From an uncultured Spirochaetales bacterium (GTDB lineage Bacteria > Myxococcota_A > UBA9160 > UBA6930), in assembly GCA_964460485.1 (NCBI GenBank), contig CAYWRY010000001.1, positions 21,761 through 85,760 of the forward strand: 64,000 bases of DNA. Reading direction: 5' to 3'. This document shows, piece after piece, positions 2,334-32,189 of the stretch. Made by a program: the position numbers and the translations under genes. The notes under the pieces are model-generated. The model had not been told where the DNA came from. It made no database searches and saw only the letters and a list, made by a program, of their open reading frames with translations. Within the stretch, counting starts at the first letter, position 1. Each line of letters opens with the position of its first letter.

Positions 2334-2349
2334 TGCAAGCGTAGTGCCG
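2334..2349 (-). promoter_or_regulatory. sigma-54 (-24/-12) promoter candidate for the CBS-DksA operon
   Basis: Minus strand reads CGGCACTACGCTTGCA (GGCAC-N5-TTGCA, GG to GC spacing exact). There are 36 nt between the GC and the start codon at 2298, and that stretch contains the GGAGGA RBS. Confidence 0.7.
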
Positions 2350-2453
2350 CACGCGGCTCCTTCCGCACACGTTGCGTCCGGACTCGTCCCGGCGGGTCTG
2401 GGTCGCAGCGACCCACCCCGGGCGCGCCGCGGCATGGGCGCGTCGGGGTTCGG

Positions 2454-2469
2454 TGGCATCCTGCGTGCA
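2454..2469 (+). promoter_or_regulatory. sigma-54 promoter candidate for the K+ channel gene
   Basis: TGGCATCCTGCGTGCA with correct GG-N10-GC spacing. Only 16 nt lie between the GC and the ATG at 2485, so the predicted leader is very short. Divergent from the 2334..2349 site. Confidence 0.6.
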
Positions 2470-2484
2470 CGAGGTGCCGCCCAC

Positions 2485-3492
2485 ATGACGACGACCCCGG
2501 CGCAGCGCATCGCCTTCGCAGCCGCCGCGCTCGCGTTGATCGCGGCGTTCGGAACGGCGGGCTACGTGCTGCTCGAGGGGTGGCCGGTCCTCGACGCGCT
2601 CTACATGACGGTGACCACGATGACGACCGTGGGCTACCGCGAGGTCCATCCGCTGAGCCGCGCGGGTCTGGTCTTCACGATGGTGCTGATCGTCGTCGGG
2701 GTGGGCGGAGCCCTCTACCTGCTCACGCAGGTGGCGGAGCTCATCCTGGACCGCCGCCTGCGCGCGGGCCTGCGAAGGAGAGTCATGGAGCGCTCGATCG
2801 GAAGGCTGTCGGGGCACATCGTGGTGTGCGGGTACGGACGCTTCGGCCGCGTCGTGGCCGACGAGCTGCGCCGCGCCGGGGAGCCGGTCGTGGTCGTGGA
2901 CCTCTCGACCGCGCTCGAAGACGAGCTGGCGACGACAGGCCTGCCGTTCGTGATCGGCACGGCGGCGTCCGACGAGACCCTCGAGCGCGCCGGGGTCGCG
3001 CGCGCTCGAGCGATCGTGGTGGCGACCTCCTCGGACGCGGACAACGTCTTCATCACGCTCGCTGCGCGCGAGCTGAATCCCGGGATCCAGATCTACGCGC
3101 GGGGTGAGAGCGACGCCGCTGCCCGGCGCCTCGAGCGCGCGGGCGCATGCTCGGTGACCTCCCCCTTCCGCATCGGCGGCCAGCGCGTGGCGGCCTCGAT
3201 CCTGCGACCTTCCGTGGTCGATTTCCTCGAGATCGGGCGTCCCCGGCAAGGCGGCGAGGTGGACCTCGAGGAGGTGCGCGTCGCGGCGGGGTCCGCCCTC
3301 GTCGGGCGCGCAGTTCGCGATCTGGAAGCCGAGGCAAGCGGCGTGCGGGTCGTGGCCGTCAAGCGCGCCGGCGAGTCGATGTTGCTGGCGCCGGTCGCCG
3401 AAACGACCATCGGCGCCGGCGACCACGTCGTCGTGATCGGGTCGCGGGCGCCGCTGCTCAAGCTCGCGGAGTCTGCTGCGACCGGCCGCTGA
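2485..3492 (+). CDS. two-TM K+-channel-like protein with RCK (TrkA-N/TrkA-C) domains
   Basis: C-terminal 335 aa of ORF 1588..3492. Contains a pore helix and filter MTVTTMTTVGYRE, a Rossmann motif VVCGYGRFG and a TrkA-C-like tail. The filter is non-canonical: GYRE where GYGD is expected. Confidence 0.85.
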   Translation: MTTTPAQRIAFAAAALALIAAFGTAGYVLLEGWPVLDALYMTVTTMTTVGYREVHPLSRAGLVFTMVLIVVGVGGALYLLTQVAELILDRRLRAGLRRRVMERSIGRLSGHIVVCGYGRFGRVVADELRRAGEPVVVVDLSTALEDELATTGLPFVIGTAASDETLERAGVARARAIVVATSSDADNVFITLAARELNPGIQIYARGESDAAARRLERAGACSVTSPFRIGGQRVAASILRPSVVDFLEIGRPRQGGEVDLEEVRVAAGSALVGRAVRDLEAEASGVRVVAVKRAGESMLLAPVAETTIGAGDHVVVIGSRAPLLKLAESAATGR

Positions 3493-3580
3493 TTGGGGCA
3501 TCCGGAGACGGCTCGGCTCCCCGACGGGTCCATCTGCCCCGCCGCGCGGTGCCGGCTGATGCGAGGCCGCGCCTCGGCGC

Positions 3581-3596
3581 GGGCACGCCCTGTGCT
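3581..3596 (+). promoter_or_regulatory. sigma-54 promoter candidate for usp-mgtE
   Basis: GGGCACGCCCTGTGCT (GGCACG-N4-GTGC). There are 27 nt to the ATG at 3623, with GGAGGTG in between. Nearly identical to the 42852..42867 site. Confidence 0.6.
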
Positions 3597-3622
3597 CCGT
3601 TCGACCGGGCGGAGGTGACGTC

Positions 3623-4507
3623 ATGCGTGCCCCCCGCAAGATCGTGGTGGCGACGGACTTCTCCGCCTGCGCAGAGCGCGCGCTCTCGGTGGCGCTCGCG
3701 ATCGGCGCCCACGGCAAGGCCGAGATCCATCTCGTGCACGCGCTCGAGGTGCCCGCGGTGGCCTACACGCCCTACGCGACGGCGCTCCCCGACGACCTGC
3801 TGGCCGCCGCGCGCGAGTCGGCGCAGCGGCGCCTCGCCGGCGCGGAAGCGGGCGTCCGCGCGAGCGGCCTCCCGGTTTCGTCGAGCCTCGCGAGCGTGCC
3901 CGCCGGGTCGGCGATCGCGAGCACGGCCAAGCAGATCGGCGCGGATCTGGTGGTGGTCGGATCGCGTGGGCACACGGGGCTCAAGCGGCTCGCGCTGGGC
4001 AGCGTCGCCGAGCACACGGTGAAGGAGTCGCCAGTTTCAGTGCTGACCGTGCGCGGCGAGGGCCACGCCGAGACGCCGAGAGTGATCGTCGTCGGCGTCG
4101 ACTTCTCGGAGGGCTCCGAGCGCGCGGTGGCCCTCGCCGCGGACTGGGCGCGCAGCTTCGGCGCGCAGCTCCAGCTGGTGAACGGTCTCGCTCTGACGAT
4201 GCCGTTCCTCGCGCCCTACGAGGTGACGGTTCCCGACGCGCTGATCGACGAGAGCTACGCCAATGCGAACAAGCGGCTCGCGGCGATCGCCGAGACGCTG
4301 CGCGACCTCGACGTGCACGCGAGCGTGGTGAGCGCCGCGCCCCACGACGCGCTCGACACGGTCGCCGCGCGCGTGAAGGCGGACCTGATCGTGACCGGCT
4401 CGCGCGGGCTGCGCGGGCTCCGGCACGCGCTGCTGGGCAGCGTGGCCGAGCGCACGCTGCGCCACGCGCCGTGCAGCGTGCTCACCGTGAAGAGCGCCGT
4501 CGCGTAG
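3623..4507 (+). CDS. tandem universal stress protein (two UspA domains)
   Basis: Full track ORF, 294 aa. Both halves have USP hallmarks (KIVVATDFS...VVGSRGHTGLKRLALGSVAEHTV and VIVVGVDFS...VTGSRGLRGLRHALLGSVAERTL). Paralog of 40242..41126. Confidence 0.9.
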   Translation: MRAPRKIVVATDFSACAERALSVALAIGAHGKAEIHLVHALEVPAVAYTPYATALPDDLLAAARESAQRRLAGAEAGVRASGLPVSSSLASVPAGSAIASTAKQIGADLVVVGSRGHTGLKRLALGSVAEHTVKESPVSVLTVRGEGHAETPRVIVVGVDFSEGSERAVALAADWARSFGAQLQLVNGLALTMPFLAPYEVTVPDALIDESYANANKRLAAIAETLRDLDVHASVVSAAPHDALDTVAARVKADLIVTGSRGLRGLRHALLGSVAERTLRHAPCSVLTVKSAVA

Positions 4508-4521
4508 CGCAGGCGCGCGGG

Positions 4522-6382: not shown

Positions 6383-6414
6383 CGCACCGAACCGAGCGTC
6401 GCAGGGCACCAGAT

Positions 6415-6430
6415 AGCAAGCCGCATACCG
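6415..6430 (-). promoter_or_regulatory. sigma-54 promoter candidate for the protease gene
   Basis: Minus strand reads CGGTATGCGGCTTGCT. The spacing is exact and the -12 TTGCT is perfect, but the -24 is GGTAT. There are 33 nt to the start at 6382. Almost identical to the acs site at 22541..22556. Confidence 0.5.
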
Positions 6431-6562
6431 CGCGCGGGCCGCCGGCGCCGCAAGATCGCACAGAAGCCGGGGCCTCGCGCCTCGCATCGCGCCGCGTTGA
6501 GGCACAGGTCCGCAGCCCGCACGGGCCGCGGCAGCCATCGTGTCCGGAGCCAGTGCCGCGCG

Positions 6563-6578
6563 CGGCATGCGCGTTGCA
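6563..6578 (+). promoter_or_regulatory. sigma-54 promoter candidate for the hsp20-CxxCH-groEL-hpf operon
   Basis: CGGCATGCGCGTTGCA (GGCAT-N5-TTGCA). There are 37 nt to the ATG at 6615, with AGGAGG at 6602-6607. Confidence 0.7.
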
Positions 6579-6614
6579 CAGCTTCTCGACGCCACCTTCA
6601 CAGGAGGAATGACG

Positions 6615-7076
6615 ATGGCGGAGAAAGAGAAGCGGGCGATCGCCCGCTGGAACCCGTTCGAGGATCTGGGCTGGTGGTTCCCGAGTCTCTCGCGCACGAG
6701 CGAGGGCGACCTGCTCGAAGACTTCTGGGGCCGTCGCGGCCCCGGGCAGTTTTCGCCGGCGACCGACATCACCGAGGACGACGGCCACTACGTCGTGAGC
6801 GCCGAGCTGCCGGGCATGAAACGCAGCGACATCAGCGTCGACGTCCACGACGGCGTGCTCACGATCCGCGGCGAGAAGAAGAGTGAACGCGAGGAGAAGA
6901 GCGAGAAGCGCCGCTACGTGGAGCGCAGCTTCGGCGCGTTCAGCCGCGCGTTCACCCTGCCGAGCGACGCCGACGAGAGCAAGGTCGAGGCGACCTTCAA
7001 GGATGGCGTCCTCACCGTCACGCTTGCGAAGTCCGAGGCCCGCAAACCTCGCGTCATCGACGTGAAGGCGTCGTGA
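6615..7076 (+). CDS. Hsp20/alpha-crystallin small heat-shock protein
   Basis: ORF 6540..7076. The ATG at 6615 sits 7 nt after AGGAGG. Alpha-crystallin core: DITEDDGHYVVSAELPGMKRSDISVDVHDGVLTIRGEKK...FSRAFTLPSDADESKVEATFKDGVLTVTL. Paralog at 42906..43361. Confidence 0.9.
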   Translation: MAEKEKRAIARWNPFEDLGWWFPSLSRTSEGDLLEDFWGRRGPGQFSPATDITEDDGHYVVSAELPGMKRSDISVDVHDGVLTIRGEKKSEREEKSEKRRYVERSFGAFSRAFTLPSDADESKVEATFKDGVLTVTLAKSEARKPRVIDVKAS

Positions 7077-9937: not shown

Positions 9938-10471
9938 ATGGAGATTCACTGGCGCAACGCGAAAGAGCTCTCGGGCGACGTGCGCGCGAAGGCGGAGGAG
10001 CAGCTCGCGAAGCTCGCCGAGCATCATCGCGACATGATCGACCTGACCGTCGACGTGGAGCGCAAGAGCGCGCATCACAAGCTGGGCAAACGCCGCGTCG
10101 AGATCCGTTGCCAGGCGCGCGGGACGAACCTTGTCGCGAACGGCGAGGCCGACGAGCTCGGGCTCGCGCTGCGCGACGCTCTGCGCACCTTCCGGCGCGA
10201 AGTCGAGAAGCTGCGGGACCGGCGCCGCGACGCGCGCGCCGAGCGCCCGGCCGAGCCGCCGCTGCGCGGCGTGATCGATCGCGTGGAGCGCGCGGGCGGC
10301 TTCGGCTTCCTCATCACCGACGCCGGCGAGCGCGTCTACTTCCACCGCAACGCGGTGGGCGGCGGGCTCGACTTCGATCGCCTCGAGGGCGGCGAGACCG
10401 TGGCCTTGAACTACGAAGCCGGCGGCGAGGGCCTGCAAGCCACGTTCGTGCGCTCGCTCGAGCCGGGCTGA
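9938..10471 (+). CDS. HPF/RaiA-like ribosome-associated domain fused to a cold-shock (CSD) domain
   Basis: C-terminal 177 aa of ORF 9689..10471. The ATG is 5 nt after the groEL stop. N-terminal MEIHWRN..VRAKAEEQLAKLAEHHRDMIDLTVDVE...VEIRCQARGTNLVANGEADELGLALRDALRTFRREVEKLRD follows the HPF/YfiA pattern. C-terminal GVIDRVERAGGFGFLITDAGERVYFHRNAV...GETVALNYEAGGEGLQATFV follows the CspA pattern. Confidence 0.75.
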   Translation: MEIHWRNAKELSGDVRAKAEEQLAKLAEHHRDMIDLTVDVERKSAHHKLGKRRVEIRCQARGTNLVANGEADELGLALRDALRTFRREVEKLRDRRRDARAERPAEPPLRGVIDRVERAGGFGFLITDAGERVYFHRNAVGGGLDFDRLEGGETVALNYEAGGEGLQATFVRSLEPG

Positions 10472-11262: not shown

Positions 11263-11313
11263 TTCTCGCTCGGCGTGTGCGGCCGGAGCAGCCGCGTGCC
11301 CGCCGCGAAGCTC

Positions 11314-11784
11314 TCACTCGCGCTTCGCCAGCCGCACGATCTTCGGGAGCGCGAGCCTCCTCCAGTCGGCGAAGCGCATGCGCACCGCTTCGTCGTGGGT
11401 GCCGCCGTTGAAGGTGATCTGCTCGTCTTGCTCGAGCGCCTCGCTCGCGTAGACGGGAAGGTCGTAGAGCACGCCGAAAGGCGGCGCGGCGCCCGGCTCG
11501 CAGTCGGGGCAGAGCGTCTTCAGGTCCGTCTCGGTCGCGACGCGGACCTGTTTCGCGCCGAGCGCCTTGCGCAGCTTCGAGGGCGCCAGGTGCTCGTTCG
11601 CCGGCATCACCGCCATCGCCGGCTTGCCGTCGATCCACACGAACACCGTCTTCGCGAACGCTTGCAGCGGCGTGAAGGTGTCGAGCGCCGTCTTCGCGGC
11701 GTGGAAGTCGCGGCGGTGATGGATCTGCGTGTAGTCGACACCCGCGGCGTCGAGCAGCTGCTGGAGTCGGCCGAGTCCGGACAT
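11314..11784 (-). CDS. YbaK/EbsC-like aminoacyl-tRNA deacylase domain protein
   Basis: C-terminal 156 aa of ORF 11314..11973. MSGLGRLQQLLDAAGVDYTQIHH...AKTVFVWIDGKPAMAVMPANEHLAPSKLRKALGA...FNGGTHDEAVRM, with GGAGG upstream. Confidence 0.65.
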   Translation of the reverse strand: MSGLGRLQQLLDAAGVDYTQIHHRRDFHAAKTALDTFTPLQAFAKTVFVWIDGKPAMAVMPANEHLAPSKLRKALGAKQVRVATETDLKTLCPDCEPGAAPPFGVLYDLPVYASEALEQDEQITFNGGTHDEAVRMRFADWRRLALPKIVRLAKRE

Positions 11785-11806: not shown

Positions 11807-12919
11807 CTAATAGATCGACCAGCGACGCACACCCATCGCGCGCGCCACGCGCGCGAGCGCGAGCTCTTCGGCCGCGGCGTGCGGCGTCGCGCGGCTCTCG
11901 CGCGCGGCGACGAGCACGGCCTCCGTGTTCGCTCGGATGCGCTCCTCGATCGCCGCGAACGCCTGGCTCTCACTCGCCCCGTGATGCTCGGCGGAGGCGC
12001 AGATCACGCCGCCGGCGTTGGCGATGAAGTCGGGCAGCACGACCACGCCGCGCTGGGCGAGCGCGACCTCGGCGTCCGCCGTCACGGCGATGTTCGCGCC
12101 GGGCGCGACGACGCGCGCGCGCAGGCGGCCGGCGTCGGCGCCTCGAATCGCGTCGGGCCGCGCGGCCGGGATCCAGATCTCGCAGTCGAGGGCGAGCAGG
12201 GCCGCCGCGGAGACCGGCTTCGCGCCCGCGAACTCCGCCACCGCACGCCCGCTGCGCTTCCACGCGATCAGCGCCTCCACATCGAGGCCGCCGGCGTGCG
12301 CGATCGCGCCCTTCGAGTCGGCCGCGCCCACCAGCACCGCACCCGCGCGGGCGAGCTGCCGCGCCGCGTGAATGCCCACCGAGCCGAAGCCCTGCACGAC
12401 GAAGCGCGCGCCCGCGAGGGCAAAGCCGGCGTGCTGCGCCGCGATCTCCACCGCGTGGCGCAGGCCGAAACCGGTAGCCCCCAGCTCGTCGAGCGGGATG
12501 CCGCCCAGCTCGCGCGGCAGGCCGACCGCGCGGCCGATCTCGTCGCGCACCCAGGCCATGCAAGCTTCGTCGGTGCCCATGTCGGGGCCGAAGATGTAGT
12601 CGCGCTCGCCGCGCAGCGCGCAGGCGAAGGCGCGCACGAGCGCCTCCTTCTGGGCGCGCGGCATGTGCGGATCGCCGACCAGCACCGACTTGCCGCCGCC
12701 GTGGGGCAGGCCGGCAGCCGCGTTCTTCAGCGTCATCGCGCGCGCGAGGCGGAAGCATTCATCGAGGCTCGCGTCCGGCGCGATGCGCAGCCCGCCGATC
12801 GACGGTCCCGCCGCCACGTTGTCGACCACCAGGATCCCGCGCAGCCCGAGCTTCGGCTGCTGGACGTGGATCACCTTGGCAGGGCCCCACGCGTCGGCGA
12901 GCGCGAACGGGTCGCTCAC
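11807..12919 (-). CDS. Glu/Leu/Phe/Val dehydrogenase family protein
   Basis: C-terminal 370 aa of ORF 11807..13039. GTG at 12919 with GGAGG upstream. Contains the GLPHGGGKSVL catalytic-Lys motif and an NAD fold VVQGFGSVG. Confidence 0.85.
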   Translation of the reverse strand: MSDPFALADAWGPAKVIHVQQPKLGLRGILVVDNVAAGPSIGGLRIAPDASLDECFRLARAMTLKNAAAGLPHGGGKSVLVGDPHMPRAQKEALVRAFACALRGERDYIFGPDMGTDEACMAWVRDEIGRAVGLPRELGGIPLDELGATGFGLRHAVEIAAQHAGFALAGARFVVQGFGSVGIHAARQLARAGAVLVGAADSKGAIAHAGGLDVEALIAWKRSGRAVAEFAGAKPVSAAALLALDCEIWIPAARPDAIRGADAGRLRARVVAPGANIAVTADAEVALAQRGVVVLPDFIANAGGVICASAEHHGASESQAFAAIEERIRANTEAVLVAARESRATPHAAAEELALARVARAMGVRRWSIY

Positions 12920-12946
12920 TTCACGGCGCCTCCGCGCCCGCGATAG

Positions 12947-12962
12947 AGCAAGGCCCGTTCCA
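12947..12962 (-). promoter_or_regulatory. sigma-54 promoter candidate for the dehydrogenase-ybaK-like operon
   Basis: Minus strand reads TGGAACGGGCCTTGCT with exact spacing and a perfect -12 TTGCT. There are 28 nt to the GTG at 12919. Confidence 0.55.
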
Positions 12963-13105
12963 ACGCGCACGTCTCCTCGCGTCCGCGAGCCGCGCGCTTC
13001 TGCGGTCGATGGCGGGCAGTCTCCGCTGCGACGCCCCAAACTGAGTCACAGTGCCACGCTCGATCCGGGCCCCGGACGCCAAGCGGTTATCCGCCGCCGG
13101 CCGCG

Positions 13106-13121
13106 CGGCACGTCGCTTGCT
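13106..13121 (+). promoter_or_regulatory. sigma-54 promoter candidate for the APH/AAA kinase gene
   Basis: CGGCACGTCGCTTGCT, a near-consensus GGCACG-N4-TTGCT. There are 28 nt to the ATG at 13149, with GGGAGG in between. Confidence 0.7.
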
Positions 13122-13148
13122 GACCGGACGGAAGGGAGGCGCGGCGCG

Positions 13149-14837
13149 ATGTCCGAGGACGGCCTGACTCCCGCCCAGCTCGCCTCGCTCGCGACCGCCG
13201 CCGCGTACCCGGGCGACCCGAGCGCCGCGGGCGGCGTGCGCTGGATCCAGACGCATCTCTCCCACGTGTTCCTGACGAGCGATCGCGTCTACAAGCTGCG
13301 CAAGGCGACGCGCCTCTCGTTCGTGGACTTCGCTGCGCGCGCCGAGCGCAACGCCGACTGCCTGCGCGAGGTCGCACTGAACCGCCGACTGGCGCCGGAC
13401 GTGTACCTCGGCGTCGCGCCGGTGCGCGCGGCGGGGCAGCGGGTCGAGATCGGCCCGGTCGGCGAGGCCCTCGTGCCGGGCTGCGAGCACGTGGTCGTGA
13501 TGCGGCGGCTGCCGGAAGGCGCCGACGCGCTCTCGCGGCTCGAGCGCGGCGCGCTCGGCGCGCGAGATCTCGACCTCGTCGCCGCGCGCATCGCGGCCTT
13601 CCACGCCGCGCACGGTCTCGGTGCACCAGCGCCCTTCGCGGCGGCGGAGTGGGCGTCGCGCGTCGCGGCGCCGATGCGAGGGAACGTGGCGTCGCTGCGC
13701 GAGTCGGCGCGCGTGCGGGTCGCCGCGAGCGCGGAGGTGGAGGCCCTCGCCGCGGAGACCGAGCGCGCGATCGCCGCGCACGCCGGGGCGATCGAGCGCA
13801 GGCGCTGCGAGGGCCGCGCGGTCGAGGGCCACGGCGACCTCCACCTCCAGCACGTCTGGTTCGAGGCGTCGCCTGACAGCCCAGACGCGCCGCCACGCCT
13901 CTCGCTGATCGACTGCCTCGAGTTCAAGGAAGAATGGCGCCAGATCGACGCCGCGAGCGAGGTGGCGTTCCTGGCCATGGATCTCGCGTACCGCGGCGCT
14001 CGCCCGCTCGGCGAGCGCTTCCTGCGCAAGTACGCCGCGCTGCGCGACGACTTCGGCCTCTACGACGTCGTGGACTTCTTCGTCGCCTATCGCGCCGCCG
14101 TGCGCGCGAAGGTGGCCGCCTTGGCGGCCTGTGATCCCGCGATCGCGCCGGGGCAGCGCGAGCGCGCCGTGGAGAGCGCGGCGCGACACCTGGCGCTCGC
14201 GCGCGAAGCGCTGCGGCCGCCCGCGGCTGCGCCGCTGCTCGTCGTGTGCGGCAGCGTGGGCACGGGCAAGAGCACCCTCGCGGAGGAACTCGCCGACGCG
14301 ACCGGCGGCGCTGTCGTCTCGTCGGACCGCACGCGCAAGGCGCTCGCGGGCATCGCTCCCGAGAGCCGCGCGCAGGCGCGCGCGGGCGCTCCGCTCTACG
14401 CCGACGCCGTGACCGACCGCGTCTACGCCGCGCTGCTGGAGCGCGCCGCCCCCGTGCTCGGCTCGGGGCGCGCCGCCGTGCTCGACGCCACGTTCGCGCG
14501 CGCGAAGCACCGCCTGGCCGCGCGCGACTTCGCCGCGGCGCGCGGCGTTCGCGCGCTGCTGGTCGAGGCGACCTGCGACGAGGCCGTCGCGCGCGAGCGC
14601 GTCGCCCGCCGCGCCGCGCTCGGTGCCGATCCTTCCGATGCAGGACCCGAACGCGTCGCGCCGAGTCGCGCGGCCTTCGAGCCGATCCGCGAATGGCCCG
14701 CCGCAGACCGACTCTCGGTCCGGACGGATTCCGGCACGGCGGACGAGCGAGCTGCGGCCCTACGGATTTGGGTCGAGGCGCATTCGGCTGGGCGCCCGCC
14801 AGATCCTCCGGCCGGCGCGCGGGCTCCTTTCGCCTGA
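13149..14837 (+). CDS. bifunctional aminoglycoside-phosphotransferase-like / P-loop (AAA) ATP-binding protein
   Basis: C-terminal 562 aa of ORF 12663..14837. The APH-type kinase motif HGDLHLQHVWF and IDCLEF are followed by a P-loop, VCGSVGTGKSTLA. Confidence 0.8.
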   Translation: MSEDGLTPAQLASLATAAAYPGDPSAAGGVRWIQTHLSHVFLTSDRVYKLRKATRLSFVDFAARAERNADCLREVALNRRLAPDVYLGVAPVRAAGQRVEIGPVGEALVPGCEHVVVMRRLPEGADALSRLERGALGARDLDLVAARIAAFHAAHGLGAPAPFAAAEWASRVAAPMRGNVASLRESARVRVAASAEVEALAAETERAIAAHAGAIERRRCEGRAVEGHGDLHLQHVWFEASPDSPDAPPRLSLIDCLEFKEEWRQIDAASEVAFLAMDLAYRGARPLGERFLRKYAALRDDFGLYDVVDFFVAYRAAVRAKVAALAACDPAIAPGQRERAVESAARHLALAREALRPPAAAPLLVVCGSVGTGKSTLAEELADATGGAVVSSDRTRKALAGIAPESRAQARAGAPLYADAVTDRVYAALLERAAPVLGSGRAAVLDATFARAKHRLAARDFAAARGVRALLVEATCDEAVARERVARRAALGADPSDAGPERVAPSRAAFEPIREWPAADRLSVRTDSGTADERAAALRIWVEAHSAGRPPDPPAGARAPFA

Positions 14838-14839: not shown

Positions 14840-14855
14840 GGGCACGCGGGATGCA
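14840..14855 (+). promoter_or_regulatory. sigma-54 promoter candidate for cfa-oxidoreductase
   Basis: GGGCACGCGGGATGCA (GGCACG-N4-ATGCA), starting 3 nt after the upstream stop. There are 50 nt to the ATG at 14905, with GGAGGGGAGG in between. Confidence 0.5.
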
Positions 14856-17280: not shown

Positions 17281-17526
17281 TCAGCGGGCGCGCGCAGCGA
17301 CGTAGGCCGCCGCTGCGTCGAGCGTCGCGACCTGCGCGTAGTCCGACTCCGGTACGTCGACGCCCGTGCGCTCGTGGATGGCGACGAGGGCGTTCAGGAA
17401 GTCCAGCGAGTCGATGTCGAGCTGCTCGCGAAGGTCGGCGCGCGGGTCGACGGCCGAGAAGTCCACCTCCGGCGCGTAGCGCGCGAAGACCTCGCACAGG
17501 AGCGCGCGCGCCTCGGAGTTCGTCAT
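17281..17526 (-). CDS. acyl carrier protein (phosphopantetheine-binding)
   Basis: C-terminal 81 aa of ORF 17281..17670. ATGA overlap with the E2 stop. Contains the DIDSLDFLNALVAI Ser attachment motif. Confidence 0.8.
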   Translation of the reverse strand: MTNSEARALLCEVFARYAPEVDFSAVDPRADLREQLDIDSLDFLNALVAIHERTGVDVPESDYAQVATLDAAAAYVAARAR

Positions 17527-18833
17527 GCCAGCTTCTCCGGCTCGAGCAGGGCGCGCTCCAGTGCCCTGAGAAACACTGCACCGCGGTGGCCGTTGCTCAC
17601 GCGATGATCGGCGGCCAGCGTCGCCTGCACGATCGTGCGCACGCACAGTCCGCCCTCGCGATCCACCCACGGTCGCGGCGCAGGCGCGCCGAAGCCGACG
17701 ATCGCCACCTGCGGCGGGTAGATCACGGCGTGCACCGAGTCGACGCCGCCGTCACCGAGGCTCGTGACCGTGAGCGTTGCGCTCGCCATCTCCGAGGCGC
17801 GCAGCTTTCCGCTGCGCGCGCGCTCGCCGAGCTCGCGCAGCGCGCGCATCAACTCGCCGAGCGGCTTCGCGCCGGCGTCGAGGATCGCCGGCGCCACGAG
17901 GCCGCCGCCGCGCAGCGCGATCGCAACGCCCAGATGCAGCGCGGGCGCCGCGCGGAACGCGCCGCGCTCGTAGTGGCCGTTCAGCTCCGGCACCGCCGGC
18001 AGCGCCAGCGCGACGGCGCGTAGCAGCAGCGCCGCGGGCAGGATGCGCTCGGCAACCGGACGCTCGCGGTTGCGCGACTCGAGCCACGCGAGCGCGGGGG
18101 TGAGATCGAGGGCCGCGCTCAGGTAGTAGTGGGGGATCTCGCGCTTCGAGCGCTCCATCAGCGCCGCGATCACCCGCTGTCGCGAAGCGCTGCGGTCGGC
18201 GGCGGGCTGGGGCGGCGCAGAGGGGGGAGGAATCGGCGTCACTGCCTGCACGGCAGCGCTCCTGGGCGCGGCGCTTGCCGCCGCACGCACGTCGTCGGCG
18301 GTGATCGCGCCGCCGGGCCCGCTTCCGGCGAGGCGCGCAAGCTCGACGCTCAGCTCGCTCGCGAGGCGTCGCGCGAGGGGCGTCGCGTGCAGACGTTCGC
18401 CCGTCGGCGTCGCGCCGGCTGGCGGTGCGGGCCGGCGCGCGCCGAGCGGCGGCGGCGCGTCTGCGCGAAGCGGCGCGCCCAGGGGCGGCGGTGCTGCCGC
18501 CGCGGGAACTGCGGCCGCACGCGCGGGCTCGGGCGCTGCGGCGATCGCCCCGGGCGCCGTCGCTCGCGCGGCGCCCCCGCCGCGAATCAGCGCCAGCGGC
18601 CCGCCGACGGGCACCTTGTCGCCGACGGACGCGATCAGCCGCTCGACCACGCCGTCGTCGAAGATCTCCACCTCCATCTCGGCCTTCTCGGTCTCCACGT
18701 CGACGACGATGTCGCCGCGGGCGACGCGATCGCCGGGCGCGACGCGCCAAGCGAGGACGGTGCCCGTCTCCATGTCCGCGCCGAGCGAGGGCATCAGGAA
18801 CTCGCGCGTCGCGGCGGCGCTCGCCTCAGCCAC
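17523..18833 (-). CDS. 2-oxoacid dehydrogenase E2 (dihydrolipoamide acyltransferase)
   Basis: Full ORF, 436 aa. Lipoyl domain [13 protein letters not shown], an Ala/Pro linker, an E3-binding-like segment and the catalytic DHRVSNG. Confidence 0.9.
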
Positions 18834-19806
18834 GGCGGCCGACCGTGGCCTCAGCGGCTGCGACGATCCGCGCGACGGAGGGAAGCGCGGCGTCCTCGAG
18901 GTGCTTCGCGTACGGCACCGGCACTTCGGCGCTGCACACGCGCGCGACTGGGGCGTCGAGCTCGAAGAACGCCCGCTCCTGGATGCGCGCCGCGATCTCC
19001 GCCGAGAGGCTGCCGCTGCGCCAGCCCTCGTCGACGACCACGGCGCGGTGAGTGCGCGCCACCGCCGCGAGGATCGCCGGCTCGTCGAGCGGCCGGAGCG
19101 AGCGCAGGTCGAGCACGCGCGCGGAGATGCCGCGCTGCGCGAGCGCTGCCGCGGCCTCGAGCGTCTTCGGCAGCGAGCTGCCGTAGCTGATCAGCGCCAC
19201 GTCGTCGCCTTCGCGCCGGATGCGCGCGTCGTGGATCGAGACCGGTCCAGCGTCCTCGGGCAGCTCGCCCTCGGCGTTCAGCAGCGCGGTGGCTTCGAAG
19301 ATCAGCACGGGGTTCGGATCGCGCAGCGCGGTGGCGAGCATGCCGTAGGCGTCCTCGTGGGTTCCCGGCGCGAGCACCTTGATGCCGGGAATGTGCGCGT
19401 ACCAGCCTTCGAGACTGTGGGAGTGCTGCGCGGCGAGCTGGCGGCCGCCCCCGGTCGCCATGCGGATCACGAGCGGCACCGCGAGCTGGCCGCCGGACAT
19501 GTGCAGCAGCGTCGCCGCGTTGTTCACGATCTGGTCGAGCGCCAGGAGGCTGAAGTTCACGGTCATGATCTCGACGATCGGGCGCATGCCGTTCAAGGCC
19601 GCGCCGATGCCGGCGCCGACGAAGGCGGACTCGGAGAGCGGCGTGTCGCGCACGCGCTCCGGGCCGAACTCGGCGAGCAGCCCCTTGCTCACCGCGAAGC
19701 AGCCGCCGTAGGCGCCCACGTCCTCGCCCATCAAGAAGACGCGCTCGTCGCGCGCGAGCGCCTCGCGCAGCCCGCGCCGCAGCGCCTCGCGGTAGCTGAG
19801 CTTCAC
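18826..19806 (-). CDS. 2-oxoacid dehydrogenase E1 beta subunit
   Basis: C-terminal 326 aa of ORF 18826..20892. GTG at 19806 (GTGA overlap) with GGAGG upstream. Contains [15 protein letters not shown] and [20 protein letters not shown]. Confidence 0.9.
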
Positions 19807-20777
19807 GACGCCTCCGCGAGCACGAAGCGCTCGAGATCTTCGAGCGGCTCGAGCGGCGCGGCCTCCGCGAAGGCAACCGCGTCGGCGAGCTCGCCGGCGA
19901 TCTCGCGCTCCAGGGCTTCCTGGGCGGCGTCGTCCCAGGCGCCGGCCGCGCGAAGGGACGCCGCGAGCGCCGCGATCGGATCGCGCCGCTTCCACTGCTC
20001 GACCTCGGCCTTGTCTCGGTAGAGCTCGGGGTCGTACATCGAGTGCGCGCGGAAGCGATAGGTGCGCAGCTCGAGGAAGCACGGCGCGCCGCCGCGCGCA
20101 TAGGCGACCGCGCGTCGGGCCGCCGCGTCCACGGCGAGCGCATCCATGCCGTCGACGCTCCACGCGGGCATCTCGTAGCTCGCCGCCTTGATCGCGAGAT
20201 TCGTCTCCGACTCCGAGCGCGCGAGCGCGGTGCCCATCGCATAGAGATTGTTCTCGCAGCAGAAAACCACCGGCAGCTGCCAGAGCGCGGCGAGGTTCAT
20301 GGACTCGTGGAACTCGCCCTCGGCCATCGCACCCTCGCCGAAGAAGCAGGCGGTCACGCAGGGCCGCGCGCGCATGCGGTCGGCGAGCGCGATGCCGACT
20401 GCGAGTGGGATCCCGCCGCCCACGATCGCGTTGCCGCCGTAGAAGCGCTTCGACGCGTCGAACAGGTGCATCGAGCCGCCGCGCCCGCGGCTGCAGCCGG
20501 CAACCTTGCCGAACATCTCCGCCATCAGCGCGCGCATGGAGAGGCCGCGCGCGAGCGCGTGGCCGTGCTCGCGGTAGGTGGAGACGACCCCATCCTCCGC
20601 CGCGAGCGCGCCCATCACGCCGGCCGCGACCGCCTCTTCGCCCACGTACAGGTGCAGGAAGCCGCGGATCTTGCTCGCGGAGTAGAGCTCCGCGCACTTC
20701 TCCTCGAAGCGCCGGATGCGCAGCATCTCGCGCAGCAGCGCGCGCCCGCGCTCGCTCGCGCCGGCGGGCGCGCTCAC
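19803..20777 (-). CDS. 2-oxoacid dehydrogenase E1 alpha subunit (TPP-dependent)
   Basis: C-terminal 324 aa of ORF 19803..21755. GTG at 20777 (GTGA overlap). Contains [19 protein letters not shown] and the TPP motif [33 protein letters not shown]. Confidence 0.9.
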
Positions 20778-22528
20778 GACTCCGGCTCCAGGGTCGAGAG
20801 GTCGCCTTCGGGCAGGCCGAGCTCGCGCGCCTTGAGCAGGCGGCGCAGCACCTTGCCGCTGCGCGTCTTCGGCAGCGCGTCGACGAAGGCAATCTCCTTC
20901 GGCGCCACCGCGGGCCCGAGCCGCGCGCGCGCGAAGCCGAGCAGCTCGCGAAGCAGCGCCTCGCTCGGGGCGACGCCCGGCCGCAGGGCGACGAAGGCCT
21001 TGATCACCGCGCCGGCGATCGGGTCGGGCTTCCCGATCACGCCGGCCTCGAGCACGGCCGGGTGAGCCATCAGCGCGCTCTCCACCTCGAAGGGGCCGAC
21101 GAGGTGCCCGGAGGACTTGATCACGTCGTCCGCCCGGCCCACGAACCAGTAGTAACCGTCGGCGTCGGCGCGCACGAGGTCGCCGGACAGGTACCAGCCG
21201 TCCGCGAAGCACTTGCGGTAGCGCTCCTCCTCGCCCAGGTAGGCGCGGAACATCGACGGCCAGCCCGCGCGCAGCGCGAGCTCGCCCTGCGCATCCGGCT
21301 CCGTCAGCACGCGCACCCGGTCGCCCTCGCGCGCGATCACGGCGGCCTCGATCCCCGGCAGCGGCTTGCCCATCGAGCCGGGCTTGATCGGGAGCGCCGC
21401 GTAGTTCGCGACCATGATCCCGCCGGTTTCCGTTTGCCACCAGTTGTCGTGGATGGGCAGCCCGAACGCCTCGATGCCCCAGTGCACGGCCTCGGGGTTC
21501 AGCGGCTCGCCTACGCTCGCAACGAAGCGCAGCGCCGGCAGCCGTCGCTCGCGCGCGAGCGCGCTGCCCGCCTTGATCAGCATGCGCACCGCGGTGGGCG
21601 CCGTGTACCAGACGCTCACGCGCTCGCGCTCCAGCGTCTCGTACCAGCGGCGCGGCTCGAACTCGGCTTCGTCGACGATGGACGTGAGGCCGAGCGCGAG
21701 CGGCGCCACGATTCCGTAAGAAGTGCCCGTCACCCAGCCGGGATCGGCCGTGCACCAGAACACGTCGCCGGGCTGGAGGTCGAGGGCGAAGCGCGCCGTC
21801 GCCACGTGCGCAACGACCGCTTCGTGCACGTGCAGGGCGCCCTTCGGCTTGCCCGTGGTGCCGCTGGTGAAGTGCAGCAGGGCCGGGTCCTCGGGCCGCG
21901 TGGGTGCGATCGCATGCTCCGGCTTCTCCGCCGCGAGCAGTGCGTCGAGATCGAGCGTGCCCGGCGGCAGCGTCTCGCCGGGAGCGCAGCCCGCGAGCAG
22001 CACGTGGGCGAGCCCCGGCACGCGCGCTCGGATGGGCGCGACCTTGCGCGCGTAGAGAGCGGGGGTCGTGACGAGCACGCGGCCGTCGCCGAGCGCGAGC
22101 CGCTGCTGGACCGGCTCGGGGCCGAACGCCGAGAACATCGGGCAGAAGACCGCGCGCTGGCGGAGCGCTCCGAGCGCCGCGACGTAGAGCGCCGGGATCC
22201 GGCCCGCGAGCGTGAAGACGCGCTCGCCCGGGGCGACGCCCAGCCGCGCCAGCAGGTTCGCGAAGCGGGCCGCGTACCCCGTCAGCTCGCGGAACGTGAG
22301 GTCCCGCGGCGCGCCGCTCTTGGGCAGCCAGCGCAGCGCCACGCGGTTCGCGTTCGCTCCGCCGGCGTGCCGGTCGAGCGCCTCGTGAGCGATGTTGAGG
22401 CCCGCGCCGCCGGGCAGCCCGTCGAGCAGGCTCCGCGCGTCACTCCAGCGGAAACGCGCGCGCTCTCGCTCGTAATCGGCGAGGTTGGGCGGACGCACCA
22501 GGGACTTCTCGATCGTTCCGGACGCCAC
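20774..22528 (-). CDS. AMP-forming acyl/acetyl-CoA synthetase
   Basis: Full ORF, 584 aa, GTG start. Contains [27 protein letters not shown] and [11 protein letters not shown]. Confidence 0.9.
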
Positions 22529-22540
22529 GGCCTGGCGCGG

Positions 22541-22556
22541 AGCAAGCCGCGTACCG
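22541..22556 (-). promoter_or_regulatory. sigma-54 promoter candidate for the acs-E1-E2-ACP operon
   Basis: Minus strand reads CGGTACGCGGCTTGCT with exact spacing and a perfect -12. Only 13 nt lie between the GC and the GTG at 22528, so the transcript would be essentially leaderless. Confidence 0.55.
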
Positions 22557-24613: not shown

Positions 24614-24645
24614 CTCGAATCCTCCACTGACATCGAACCGCTTCC

Positions 24646-24661
24646 AGCAAGGTTCGTTCCG
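24646..24661 (-). promoter_or_regulatory. sigma-54 promoter candidate for the hypothetical-ldt-DUF882 operon
   Basis: Minus strand reads CGGAACGAACCTTGCT with exact spacing and a perfect -12 TTGCT. There are 33 nt to the start at 24613. Confidence 0.5.
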
Positions 24662-24723
24662 TCTCCGCTGGCTCCCCGGATGGCGCCACCGGGCGGGCCG
24701 CGCGCCCCGAGCCGAGGTCGAGT

Positions 24724-24739
24724 CGGCATGGCCGATGCA
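24724..24739 (+). promoter_or_regulatory. sigma-54 promoter candidate for the PRT-malic enzyme operon
   Basis: CGGCATGGCCGATGCA. There are 26 nt to the ATG at 24765, with AGGAGG at 24753-24758. Divergent from 24646..24661. Confidence 0.55.
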
Positions 24740-24764
24740 CAATCGCCCGCGCAGGAGGGCGCGC

Positions 24765-29445: not shown

Positions 29446-29495
29446 GCGGCGAGATTCGCGCGGCGCGTCCCCGGAGACGCCGCGCGCCGAGTCGC

Positions 29496-29975: not shown

Positions 29976-29995
29976 CGCTCCCCTCCCGGCCGGGC

Positions 29996-30421: not shown

Positions 30422-30456
30422 TGCCAGTCCGCCTGGGCGTTCGAGAATGAGTTCGA

Positions 30457-30472
30457 GGCAATCGTCGTGCCG
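30457..30472 (-). promoter_or_regulatory. sigma-54 promoter candidate for the hemerythrin-CBS-ATPase operon
   Basis: Minus strand reads CGGCACGACGATTGCC (GGCACG-N4-TTGC, near consensus). There are 36 nt to the GTG at 30421. Confidence 0.7.
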
Positions 30473-30587
30473 CGTGCGGCGCCGCGGGCTGACCGCGCGG
30501 GCGTGGCGTGCGGGACGGTTCGCCCGCTCGTCGGGGCGCGCCGCATCAGGCCGGGCGCTCCCACCGGGCGACGATCCCCGCCCGCGG

Positions 30588-30603
30588 CGGCACGAACGCT
30601 GCT
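30588..30603 (+). promoter_or_regulatory. sigma-54 promoter candidate for the DUF4404 gene
   Basis: CGGCACGAACGCTGCT. Only 13 nt lie between the GC and the ATG at 30616, so the transcript is predicted leaderless. Divergent from 30457..30472. Confidence 0.6.
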
Positions 30604-30615
30604 ATCTCGACCCGC

Positions 30616-30867
30616 ATGCCCACCCGCGACGTTCACGACGCCGTCGAGAAGCTTCACACCGCGCTCGCGGACGCCCCGACGCTCACGCCCGAGCTGCGTA
30701 GCGAGCTCGAGAGCGTGCTGCGCGACGTCGAGCGCGCGCTCGGAGGGCGCGAGCGGCCGCTGGCAACGCGCGCGACCGAGCTGACCGCGCGCTTCGAGGC
30801 GAGCCATCCCCGCCTGGCCGAATCCCTCGCCGCGCTCGCCCGTGCGCTCGCCGGCGTGGGGATCTGA
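30616..30867 (+). CDS. DUF4404-like small protein
   Basis: C-terminal 83 aa of ORF 30508..30867. MPTRDVHDAVEKLHTALADAPTLTPELRSELESVLRDVERAL...SHPRLAESLAALARALAGVGI fits the DUF4404 pattern from memory. Confidence 0.65.
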   Translation: MPTRDVHDAVEKLHTALADAPTLTPELRSELESVLRDVERALGGRERPLATRATELTARFEASHPRLAESLAALARALAGVGI

Positions 30868-30881
30868 CGCGCCACCACGCT

Positions 30882-32117
30882 TCACGGCTGCGCCTGGCGC
30901 AGCCCGGCGAGCGCGCGCAGCTCGGCGAGCCAATCGGTCACGTCGCGCGGGACGTCGAGCCCGGCCGAGCCCATCCAGCCGAGCACCGTCTGCTCCTCGA
31001 GCACGCCGTAGGCGTCGCGCGCGATGTCGCTGTTCGGCGCCGCGCGGATCGCGCTCTCGAGATAGGCCTCCGCCTGCGGCAGACCGCGGGACGGGTCGTT
31101 GCGGAGCTCGGCGAGGCCGAGCAGGTAGCTCGCCTCCGCGCGCTCGTCGGGGTTCGCGAGGCCGCGCGCGAGCGCGCGGTGCAAGAGCGCCGAGGCGACC
31201 AGGTCGTGCACGAGCGCGCTCCGATCCGCGGGAAAGCGCCGGCGCGCCTCCGCCTTGGCCAGCACCTCGCGCGCCTCGACCAGCGTCGAGGCCTGCTCGT
31301 AGGGAGCGAGTTGAGCCAGCGCCTCGCGCCAGCTCGCGAAGAGCTGGCCGAGATAGGGCGGGGCGTCGCCGCGCGCGGCGAGCGCCGCCAGCATGCGTCC
31401 TGCGCGCGCATAGTCGCTGCGCACGCGCAGGGCGACCACCAGGTAGTCCTCGAGCGCGCCCTCGAAGTCGAGCGCCGAGAGCGAGGTCGAGCGCGCGGCG
31501 AAAAGCTTCTCGTAGGTTTCGAGCGCTGCGTCGAACTGGCGCGTTGCGATCAGCAGCCGCGCGCGCGCGGTGGGCGGCGCGCTCTGCATGCGCGCGGTGA
31601 GCGGGACGCCCACCGCGTGCTCGCGGGGATCGGGCAGGCGCACGTGACAGCCGGCGCAGTCGTCCACCACCTGGTTCAGCAGGAAACGCGCCTCGTCGGA
31701 GCTGCCCGCCTGAAAGCGCTTCGCGATCTCGGTCGCGTCCTCGGAGAGCCGGCGGGCGAAGAATCGGAAGCCGGGCGTGTCGTCGCCCCCGTGGAGCTCG
31801 AGCGCCGAGGCGTTGCGGGAGAGCTCGCGCAGCGCGCCGCGCAGCTCCTCGCGCGCGGCGGGCGAGGCGAACGTCTCCTGATCCTGTGCGTACGGCAGTG
31901 CGATCTCGAGCGCCGAGACGATGCCCACCATGCGCGCGGGGGTGTTCGGCAGCTCCTCGGCCGCCGGCTGCTGAGGCGCACAAGCGGTCGAGGTGGCGAA
32001 CAGGACGACGAAAGAGAATGGGACGAAACGCCCCGCTCCGCGTCCGATCGCCTCGATGCGCGCCCCGCCATCGCAGCTCGCCACGTGCGCCGCCCCCGCC
32101 GTTTCCGAGTCCTTCAC
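30882..32117 (-). CDS. secreted/lipoprotein-like helical protein with a single CxxCH motif (paralog of 7073..8266)
   Basis: C-terminal ~411 aa of the 1448-aa track ORF 30882..35228. GTG at 32117 sits 9 nt after GGAGG; an alternative GTG lies at 32084. Hydrophobic FVPFSFVVLFATSTAC, then DDCAGCHVRLP. Collinear similarity to 7073..8266 runs to the C-terminus (...LAELRALAG vs ...[10 protein letters not shown]). Confidence 0.7.
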   Translation of the reverse strand: MKDSETAGAAHVASCDGGARIEAIGRGAGRFVPFSFVVLFATSTACAPQQPAAEELPNTPARMVGIVSALEIALPYAQDQETFASPAAREELRGALRELSRNASALELHGGDDTPGFRFFARRLSEDATEIAKRFQAGSSDEARFLLNQVVDDCAGCHVRLPDPREHAVGVPLTARMQSAPPTARARLLIATRQFDAALETYEKLFAARSTSLSALDFEGALEDYLVVALRVRSDYARAGRMLAALAARGDAPPYLGQLFASWREALAQLAPYEQASTLVEAREVLAKAEARRRFPADRSALVHDLVASALLHRALARGLANPDERAEASYLLGLAELRNDPSRGLPQAEAYLESAIRAAPNSDIARDAYGVLEEQTVLGWMGSAGLDVPRDVTDWLAELRALAGLRQAQP

Positions 32118-32148
32118 GTGCTTCCACCTCCGGTGTCGTTCGCAGGAC

Positions 32149-32164
32149 TGCAGGCAACATGCCG
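32149..32164 (-). promoter_or_regulatory. sigma-54 promoter candidate for the CxxCH paralog 2 gene
   Basis: Minus strand reads CGGCATGTTGCCTGCA with exact spacing. There are 32 nt to the GTG at 32117, containing GGAGG. Confidence 0.55.
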
Positions 32165-32173
32165 CTCCTCGCT

Positions 32174-32189
32174 TGGCATCGCCCCTGCA
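32174..32189 (+). promoter_or_regulatory. sigma-54 promoter candidate for the small membrane protein gene
   Basis: TGGCATCGCCCCTGCA. There are 15 nt to the ATG at 32204. It is back-to-back with 32149..32164, only 9 bp apart. Confidence 0.6.

Follow-up and report, generated by a model that had tools for sequence, protein, structure and literature searches.

A 41-kb cluster of 19 probable sigma-54 promoters, including six divergent pairs, in an uncultured Myxococcota bacterium

We asked whether the closely packed -24/-12 boxes in a 64-kb stretch of DNA from an uncultured Myxococcota bacterium (the window; all positions are window coordinates) are real sigma-54 promoters and, if so, whether promoters that stand back to back share the enhancer sites from which they would be activated. 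Sigma-54 promoters are the bacterial model of enhancer-dependent transcription, and the reach of enhancers has been studied mostly on single engineered constructs. An initial annotation of this DNA had listed divergent pairs of boxes, and its placement of the twelve paired sites, strands included, held throughout, all of them lying in divergent intergenic regions. Its title counted five pairs, whereas its own list and the sequence give six, and its total of 19 sites matches the 19 intergenic matches to our search pattern.

Since a plain listing of open reading frames (ORFs) is uninformative at the 74% G+C found across the whole window, the gene map was derived from codon-position bias, trained on the clearest ORFs, and corrected by a frame plot of G+C at third codon positions. 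The frame plot led us to reject a single gene at 1588-3492 in favor of two genes, 1495-2301 (-) and 2485-3492 (+), and the start of the second Hsp20 gene was set at 42906. Joint Genome Institute gene calls on identical metagenome contigs agree with this map. On it, all six pairs lie inside divergent intergenic regions, and each paired box faces the start codon next to it, with 12-35 nt between the 16-mer and the codon. The canonical pattern TGGCAC-N5-TTGCW with up to 2 mismatches matched the window 27 times against 15.5±4.3 expected, a count reached by 1 of 100 shuffles, and the relaxed pattern BGGHAY-N6-TGCH matched 20 times against 3.5±1.9 expected, reached by 0 of 100. All 19 intergenic boxes fit the relaxed pattern with strict GG-N10-GC spacing, and 13 of them have at most 2 mismatches to the 11 specified consensus positions. 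Because the relaxed pattern was fitted to the sites after the fact, the location of the matches is the stronger argument. Nineteen of the 20 matches are wholly intergenic, in a window of which intergenic DNA makes up 7.2%, and all 19 are aimed at a gene start 12-41 nt away. They fall within 2.3-42.9 kb, the other 21 kb holding one match, inside a gene. Every divergent intergenic region inside this island carries a box (7/7), six of the seven on both sides, as opposed to none of the five outside it. As a baseline, the same pattern run on 80 unrelated bacterial loci (1.29 Mb) gave 152 matches and 1 divergent pair within 160 bp, compared with 6 such pairs in the 64 kb of the window.

We compared the boxes with the orthologous DNA of relatives, retrieved as syntenic loci (L086-L088 and L090-L095) by way of three genes of the window, those for a sensor kinase, a dehydrogenase and a phosphoribosyltransferase; of the six pairs, this DNA covers pairs 2 to 6. 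The sensor kinase is 77-85% identical to that of the window in L086, L087, L090, L091 and L092, and L088 is a more distant relative at 63% identity. One further phosphoribosyltransferase homolog (L096) was set aside on account of its unrelated gene context. A search of genome contigs with the kinase returned only generic kinase-domain matches from many phyla and no orthologous loci, and a search of metagenome contigs with the 411-amino-acid (aa) ORF beside pair 6 returned one 1.4-kb fragment only. For 17 of the 19 sites, a box stands at the corresponding position in contigs of related Myxococcota (L086, L087, L088 and L090-L095). In the alignments the GG, the GC and neighboring consensus positions are invariant, while spacers and flanks drift. 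Pairs 5 and 6 and the boxes of the 87-aa ORF, the NMD3-like gene and the activator gene are all kept in L086, L087, L090, L091 and L092; counted by lineage, pairs 5 and 6 are kept in six of six, pair 3 in three of three and pair 2 in two of three. The boxes of the GGGCAC variant (3581, 14840 and 42852) have orthologous counterparts as well. Given the GG-N10-GC geometry, the orientation and distance to start codons, this conservation, and the presence in the same island of an activator with the GAFTGA motif, we conclude from the sequence that the boxes are very probably real sigma-54 promoters.

That activator is of the NtrC type, and its gene lies directly downstream of the gene for a globin-coupled sensor histidine kinase (Table 1). 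Domain scans of the window found no other kinase or activator. In the kinase, the candidate proximal His94 and distal Tyr41 of the globin part and the candidate phosphoacceptor His209 were read by eye from the translation rather than from an alignment to the characterized kinases NmpU or AfGcHK, and the globin part is related to HemAT and to the Geobacter globin sensor. Upstream of the kinase gene in the relatives (L086-L092) is a TTGACA-N17-CATnnT sequence ~8 nt before the ATG, which in the window (37400-37450) reads TTGATT-N17-CATAGT. Since the kinase gene has this sequence and no -24/-12 box, it looks constitutively transcribed from a sigma-70-type promoter. The activator gene, by contrast with the kinase gene, has a box of its own, which in seven lineages, L088 among them, precedes the ATG by 12-14 nt, and from this position we infer autoregulation through the box at 38799. 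Taking boxes and regulators together, our reading is that the DNA from ~2.3 to 43 kb would be a sigma-54 regulon island of ~19 short units, each with its own -24/-12 promoter, under the control of the globin kinase and the NtrC-type activator, with the wide pairs sharing activator sites. We give this reading a probability of roughly 0.7.

Under such control, the kinase would report O2, or another haem ligand, and so set the phosphorylation state of the activator. The activator would oligomerize on enhancer sites in the island, contact promoter-bound sigma-54 holoenzyme by DNA looping and open the promoters, boosting its own gene in the process. The island could be switched on by the loss of O2 or by exposure to it. 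The six divergent pairs would be a consequence of dense packing, with units of opposite orientation and one promoter class standing close together throughout the island. In the wide pairs, activator sites that serve both directions most likely lie in the inter-promoter DNA, at roughly -40 to -150 of either promoter, with the conserved blocks of pairs 3 and 5 as candidates. For the pairs separated by 62 and 9 bp, the activator would act from the leader or coding DNA of the partner or from a neighboring enhancer, and at the 9-bp pair two holoenzymes would adjoin back to back, about one helical turn separating their -24 elements.

The spacing of the pairs bears directly on the sharing of enhancers. 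If the boxes occupy -26 to -11, the stretch that separates the two promoters in each of the four wide pairs (104-143 bp) runs from about -27 to -130/-170 of either partner, which is the classical enhancer zone for both promoters, so that shared enhancers are plausible there. A conserved block stands in the middle of pair 3 and another inside pair 5 (Table 1). TGAGKCACAG from the pair 3 block also occurs in pair 2 (6498-6511), in both cases 64-65 bp from the plus-strand box, and these two copies are the only ones. Across lineages the gap of pair 5 measures 115, 115, 124, 113, 113 and 111 bp, that of pair 3 is 144 and 123 bp in L093 and L094, and that of pair 2 is 121 bp in L094. Among orthologs the gaps differ by nearly 10-11 or 20-21 bp, about one or two helical turns (132 versus 121, 143/144 versus 123, 113-115 versus 124, with 111 as an exception), which suggests a constraint on helical phase, though the cases are few and the sample is small. 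The sequence GGGGC(C)GAA(A/C) is found 35-60 bp upstream of the hemerythrin and NMD3-like boxes (30505-30530 and 37365-37385), and upstream of the activator box in L090 and L092 (~11285-11320) it forms an inverted pair, GCGTTTCGC-N13-GCGAAACGC. Although absent from most other promoters, it may be regarded as the best lead for an activator half-site. Imperfect palindromes are present in the middle of pair 1 (2385-2429, with the core TGGGTCGC-A-GCGACCCA at 2399-2415) and of pair 4 (24670-24699, core ATGGCGCCAC), and these could be regulator sites.

Motif discovery around the sites, which the initial annotation had proposed as a check, yielded no motif shared by all promoter regions. Our own Gibbs sampler, run on 14 upstream regions, stayed within the range of shuffled controls at widths 12 and 16; at width 20 it reached 12.1 bits against at most 11.5 in four controls, the picked sites being GC-rich with no recognizable motif. 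Compared with the rest of the window, the words CCGGGGC and CCCCGG are enriched at p ~1e-4 before correction for thousands of words, and runs of G4/C4 occur at 14 per kb in sigma-54 intergenic DNA, 7.8 in other intergenic DNA and 5.5 in coding DNA. This enrichment of C/G runs is a weak lead and does not amount to a motif. A spaced-dyad search over 75 promoter instances from 25 families returned only C/G-run dyads. Exact palindromic dyads upstream of the promoters were likewise discarded as GC-rich noise. The sequence GTCTCCGCTG, common to pairs 3 and 4, has no further copies, and no AT-rich patch resembling an integration host factor (IHF) site was found at a fixed distance across 76 stacked promoters. 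The activator NmpR of Myxococcus xanthus binds GCGCA-N5-TGCGC, with two sites per promoter 14-15 bp apart (PMC11841059). In the window this consensus had 355 loose matches versus 340 expected, and a perfect GCA-N5-TGC core occurs only once inside the pair regions, in pair 1. Shared enhancers, as put forward in the initial annotation, are plausible for the wide pairs, with the conserved mid-blocks of pairs 3 and 5 as candidates, but neither a motif common to all pairs nor an enrichment of the NmpR site speaks for them.

For the compact pairs, the same annotation had reasoned that enhancers must lie outside the DNA between the promoters, and this reasoning is sound. Since the 9 bp of pair 6 (9, 11, 12, 8, 9 and 9 bp across the six lineages) leave no room between the promoters and the 62 bp of pair 4 very little, activator sites would have to lie in the flanking leaders or coding DNA, or farther away or on the other side. 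One conserved stretch, CGAATCGCC, lies in the 5' coding part of the 411-aa ORF and is a candidate enhancer of pair 6, although its conservation is inseparable from protein-coding constraint. In pair 6, 12-13 bp separate the GG dinucleotides and ~62 bp the predicted transcription starts (~32138 and ~32200), and the recognition elements do not overlap. Published closed-complex footprints of sigma-54 holoenzyme reach to about -34 and would meet within this spacer. Over the start codon of the 96-aa ORF (32196-32232) there is a 12-nt inverted repeat (ATGGCGGCATGA / TCACGCCGCCAT). A 5' hairpin at this position was rejected, as it is not conserved in orthologs and the fold-energy z-scores were not significant.

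Five of the 19 boxes come within 12-15 nt of the start codon and are followed by no Shine-Dalgarno sequence (2454-2487, 22526-22556, 30588-30618, 32174-32206 and 38799-38831). They belong to the genes for the K+ channel, the acyl-CoA synthetase (with a GTG start), the DUF4404 protein, the 96-aa ORF and the activator. The other 14 boxes lie 23-41 nt before the start, with AGGAGG-like sites. Since the 12-14 nt spacing is kept in orthologs and no Shine-Dalgarno sequence is present, leaderless or nearly leaderless mRNAs from sigma-54 promoters are implied.

Several observations weigh against a regulon under one sensor and one activator with enhancers shared within the pairs. Myxobacteria encode dozens of activators, so that several could share the island. 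The gene rpoN is not within the 64-kb window, and the NmpS/NmpT relay of M. xanthus is missing here, so the signal logic may differ. None of the Gibbs, k-mer and dyad searches brought out a motif that the promoter regions all share and that exceeds shuffled or non-coding background, nor is there any enrichment of the NmpR consensus. L093 has the Hsp20 box of pair 2 without the box on the protease side, and in L095 and L092 both boxes of pair 4 persist, but with a gene of 454-455 aa inserted between them. These two cases indicate that promoters do not need to be coupled in pairs in order to function. Together with the lack of a common motif and with conserved central blocks that are each specific to their own pair, they speak for the strongest alternative, in which the boxes are real promoters but their pairing is a by-product of dense divergent packing, each promoter having its own enhancer and possibly a different activator, with no coupling or sharing. 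If pairing were incidental to this extent, however, one would not expect pairs 3, 5 and 6 to hold their geometry in every lineage sampled, or the gaps of orthologs to differ by near one or two helical turns, small as that sample is. At the 9-bp and 62-bp pairs, moreover, an upstream enhancer overlaps the transcribed region of the partner, so that some interplay is hard to avoid. We consider incidental pairing possible, although clearly less probable than the shared regulon.

A second alternative concerns the compact pair, which might act as a mutually exclusive switch: two holoenzymes would be unable to occupy it together, and one gene would fire per activation event. Both the conserved spacing of 8-12 bp and the expected overlap of closed-complex footprints in the 9-bp spacer are compatible with such a switch. 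The recognition elements themselves stay clear of each other, however, the sequence is silent on occupancy, and the equally good conservation of both boxes fits co-expression just as well, which makes exclusive firing unlikely in our estimation. That the motif is no sigma-54 promoter at all but a chance similarity in GC-rich DNA or the site of another factor, such as the GGAAC-type -35 element of an extracytoplasmic function (ECF) sigma factor or a palindromic operator, is very improbable, for although two boxes read TGGAAC and CGGAAC, the boxes of the compact pair together form an imperfect inverted repeat and the genome is 74% GC, every site keeps the strict GG-N10-GC spacing and a single orientation at 12-41 nt from a start codon, 19 of 20 matches fall in the intergenic 7% of the window, only the -24 and -12 positions are conserved, and the gene for the sigma-54 activator in the island carries the same box.

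Returning to the reading of one sensor-governed island, a bolder version would combine its parts. The pair with 8-12 bp spacing would be a true bidirectional unit, with two holoenzymes loaded together and fired by one activator assembly in flanking coding DNA; the island would be a globin-sensed, DosR-like regulon for dormancy and oxygen stress wired entirely via sigma-54; and about a quarter of its promoters would give rise to leaderless mRNAs. We put this combination forward only tentatively.

The positions of the boxes, conserved blocks and regulator genes are collected in Table 1. According to Pfam, the boxes head short units encoding a protein with CBS domains and a DksA-type zinc finger; a TrkA-type K+ channel; tandem universal stress proteins (USPs); an MgtE-like transporter; a ClpP-like SDH protease; Hsp20 with the 397-aa ORF, GroEL and a fusion of hibernation-promoting factor (HPF) and cold-shock domain (CSD); a Glu/Leu/Phe/Val dehydrogenase; a tRNA-editing-domain protein; an AAA_33 kinase-like protein; a cyclopropane-fatty-acid synthase and a flavoprotein; an acyl-CoA synthetase with 2-oxoacid dehydrogenase E1/E2 and acyl carrier protein (ACP); an L,D-transpeptidase and an M15 peptidase; a phosphoribosyltransferase and malic enzyme; hemerythrin, a CBS protein and possibly a P-type ATPase; DUF4404 and several small ORFs; a second Hsp20; and a phosphoribosyl pyrophosphate (PRPP) synthetase-like protein, a nucleoside-phosphorylase-like protein and a beta-CASP RNase. 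The island genes are thus stress-, dormancy- and oxygen-related, comprising USPs, two Hsp20s, a GroEL paralogue, a hibernation factor, CBS proteins, hemerythrin, a P-type ATPase, ion channels, cell-wall remodeling and central metabolism.

Table 1. Positions of the -24/-12 boxes, intergenic regions of the pairs, conserved blocks and regulator genes in the window. Gaps are measured between the paired 16-mers.
Feature	Position	Strand	Sequence	Gene and distance	Remarks
Pair 1 intergenic region	2302-2484				gap 104 bp
Pair 1 left	2334-2349	-	CGGCACTACGCTTGCA	32 nt to ATG of CBS + DksA/TraR zinc-finger gene 1495-2301	strong Shine-Dalgarno sequence AAGGAGG
Pair 1 right	2454-2469	+	TGGCATCCTGCGTGCA	15 nt to ATG of TrkA-type K+ channel gene 2485-3492	
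Single box	3581-3596	+	GGGCACGCCCTGTGCT	26 nt to tandem-USP gene 3623-4507	same box in L094
Pair 2 intergenic region	6383-6608				gap 132 bp
Pair 2 left	6415-6430	-	CGGTATGCGGCTTGCT	32 nt to SDH-type ClpP-like protease gene 5543-6382	in L094, absent from L093
Pair 2 right	6563-6578	+	CGGCATGCGCGTTGCA	30 nt to Hsp20 gene 6609-7076, followed by 397-aa ORF, GroEL, HPF-CSD fusion	kept in L093, L094
Pair 3 intergenic region	12920-13148				gap 143 bp
Pair 3 left	12947-12962	-	TGGAACGGGCCTTGCT	27 nt to Glu/Leu/Phe/Val dehydrogenase gene 11807-12919	kept in L093, L094
Conserved block, middle of pair 3	13033-13060	.	CGCCCCAAACTGAGTCACAGTGCCAC, CGCCCCA..TGAGTCA..GTGCC		candidate shared activator or architectural site
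Pair 3 right	13106-13121	+	CGGCACGTCGCTTGCT	27 nt to AAA_33 kinase-like gene 13149-14837	kept in L093, L094
Single box	14840-14855	+	GGGCACGCGGGATGCA	upstream of cyclopropane-fatty-acid-synthase-like gene	ortholog boxes in L087, L093, L094
Single box	22541-22556	-	CGGTACGCGGCTTGCT	12 nt to GTG of acyl-CoA synthetase/E1/E2/ACP operon 17281-22528	equal 12-nt spacing in L094, L095
Pair 4 intergenic region	24614-24764				gap 62 bp
Pair 4 left	24646-24661	-	CGGAACGAACCTTGCT	32 nt to 155-aa ORF/L,D-transpeptidase/M15 peptidase operon	kept in L095, L092, there away from phosphoribosyltransferase box
Pair 4 right	24724-24739	+	CGGCATGGCCGATGCA	25 nt to phosphoribosyltransferase + malic enzyme genes	
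Pair 5 intergenic region	30422-30615				gap 115 bp
Pair 5 left	30457-30472	-	CGGCACGACGATTGCC	35 nt to hemerythrin + CBS genes (possibly also P-type ATPase)	kept in 5 relatives
Conserved block, inside pair 5	30512-30552	.	[GT]TTCGCC ... GGGGC ... GCGYCA		fixed 45-46 bp from hemerythrin box in six lineages
Pair 5 right	30588-30603	+	CGGCACGAACGCTGCT	12 nt to ATG of DUF4404 gene	leaderless class
Pair 6 intergenic region	32118-32203				gap 9 bp
Pair 6 left, compact	32149-32164	-	CGGCATGTTGCCTGCA	31 nt to 411-aa ORF 30882-32117	kept in 5 relatives
Pair 6 right, compact	32174-32189	+	TGGCATCGCCCCTGCA	14 nt to ATG of 96-aa membrane ORF 32204-32494	kept in 5 relatives, TGGCTC variant in two
Single box	32518-32533	+	CGGCACGCTTCCTGCT	before 87-aa ORF/PRPP-synthetase-like/nucleoside-phosphorylase-like/beta-CASP operon	near-identical including spacer in L086, L090-L092, L088
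Single box	37317-37332	-	CGGTACGGGCCGTGCA	23 nt to NMD3-like 168-aa gene	divergent from kinase gene
Globin-coupled sensor histidine kinase	37451-38695	+			Protoglobin-HisKA-HATPase_c (PF11563 + PF00512 + PF02518); without -24/-12 box of its own
Single box	38799-38814	+	TGGCATGAAGCCTGCT	14 nt to activator ATG	kept in six relatives including L088
NtrC-type sigma-54 activator	38829-40238	+			REC, Sigma54_activat, AAA_lid_14, HTH_8; GAFTGA and Walker A intact; directly downstream of kinase, followed by tandem USP gene
Single box	42852-42867	+	GGGCACGCCTCGTGCA	38 nt to second Hsp20 gene (start 42906)	box kept in L086

Some of these units deserve a remark of their own. The operon at 32865-36691, behind the box at 32518, encodes the PRPP-synthetase-like protein, a 496-aa protein resembling thymidine/AMP phosphorylases and the beta-CASP metallo-RNase, and every relative has kept it; it may serve nucleotide salvage or RNA turnover in cells that are not growing. 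Two unusual fusions stand behind boxes, one joining an S30AE ribosome-hibernation domain to a cold-shock domain (9938-10471), the other a CBS pair to a DksA/TraR C4 zinc finger (1495-2301). In the same island of the relatives there are extra units with -24/-12 boxes of their own (L093, 12142-15071; L094, 11200-13525), encoding RtcB with archease, RNA 3'-phosphate cyclase, a Haem_bd protein and more CBS proteins. The RtcB, archease and cyclase units recall rtcBA/RtcR of E. coli, RNA-repair genes under sigma-54. Outside the island, a 127-aa ORF at 59874-60257 (-) has a signal-like N-terminus followed by an extreme arginine-rich run, RHRHRRRVRRRVRRRRIRRRVRWR. An Rfam scan of the window found no family.

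What the locus offers is a graded natural series of divergent spacings (9, 62, 104, 115, 132 and 143 bp) that is conserved and apparently under one sensor-activator pair. It suits tests of enhancer sharing between divergent promoters, of activation from coding DNA and of the steric limits of back-to-back holoenzymes, and it would broaden the oxygen regulon of the Nmp proteins, in uncultured relatives, to a clustered gene set that is larger and dormancy-like. Current models are not overturned; the value lies in a rich test system for enhancer sharing and promoter crowding rather than in a new principle or mechanism. In the literature that we found, there is no description of 19 clustered sigma-54 promoters in 41 kb, of six divergent pairs in a row, of a conserved pair whose -24 boxes are separated by about one helical turn, or of sigma-54 promoters 12-15 nt before a start codon without a Shine-Dalgarno sequence. 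The initial annotation had called the geometry unusual, and this is right for the density of pairs and for the conserved 9-bp case, but divergent sigma-54 pairs as such were already known from orp1/orp2 (PMC3897727).

The closest known system is NmpRSTU of Myxococcus xanthus, a member of the same phylum, and the Myxococcota make heavy use of sigma-54 (PMC11841059). In M. xanthus, the protoglobin kinase NmpU, a homolog of AfGcHK of Anaeromyxobacter sp. Fw109-5, and the NtrC-like NmpR control a sigma-54 regulon with CBS, USP, P-type ATPase and hemerythrin genes among its members and with positive, sigma-54-dependent autoregulation (PMC11841059), and the mode of action proposed above for kinase and activator is the one demonstrated there for NmpU, NmpS and NmpR. 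With O2 bound to their haem, AfGcHK and NmpU are active, and the relay of Myxococcus inverts the signal through NmpS. The island shares with this system a protoglobin-HisKA-HATPase kinase, a REC-AAA+-HTH activator of the NtrC type, which we liken to NmpR by domain architecture, intergenic sigma-54 promoters, an activator gene behind such a promoter, and the CBS, USP, P-type ATPase and hemerythrin families, all of them behind boxes, the P-type ATPase possibly so. It differs in its gene order, the kinase gene immediately preceding that of the activator, and in showing no enrichment of the NmpR site. Neither the window nor the ±10 kb surveyed in relatives encodes a second kinase or another receiver protein to match the hybrid kinase NmpS or NmpT, although one elsewhere in the genome is possible. 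The M. xanthus regulon, finally, consists of 7 promoters scattered over the genome, whereas here 19 stand in one 41-kb island with six divergent pairs.

For the divergent arrangement, the nearest counterpart is orp1/orp2 of D. vulgaris Hildenborough, where divergent sigma-54 promoters are co-activated by OrpR/DVU2106 at palindromic sites in the shared intergenic region, together with IHF (PMC3897727). Two opposite-strand sigma-54 promoters in one intergenic region are common to both cases, and here there are six such cases. That system, however, is a single pair in a wide intergenic region with defined IHF sites, whereas the six pairs described here include spacings of 9 and 62 bp. In E. coli, zraP/zraSR and hyc/hyp are divergent sigma-54 pairs with activator sites (for ZraR and FhlA) between both promoters; both occur as isolated pairs whose intergenic regions measure at least 100 bp, and we know of no case with -24 boxes ~10 bp apart. 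In gene content, the island recalls the DosR/DevR regulon of Mycobacterium tuberculosis, in which a haem gas-sensor kinase controls USPs, alpha-crystallin/Hsp20, CBS proteins, a P-type ATPase, phosphoribosyltransferases and a hibernation factor. Hypoxia-induced USPs are mentioned in PMC11841059. DosR itself is of the NarL type and works at promoters of the sigma-70 type, and its sensors use GAF-haem domains, whereas in the island the predicted sensor is a globin and the predicted output a sigma-54 activator. The resemblance is one of functional analogy rather than of family membership or regulator homology.

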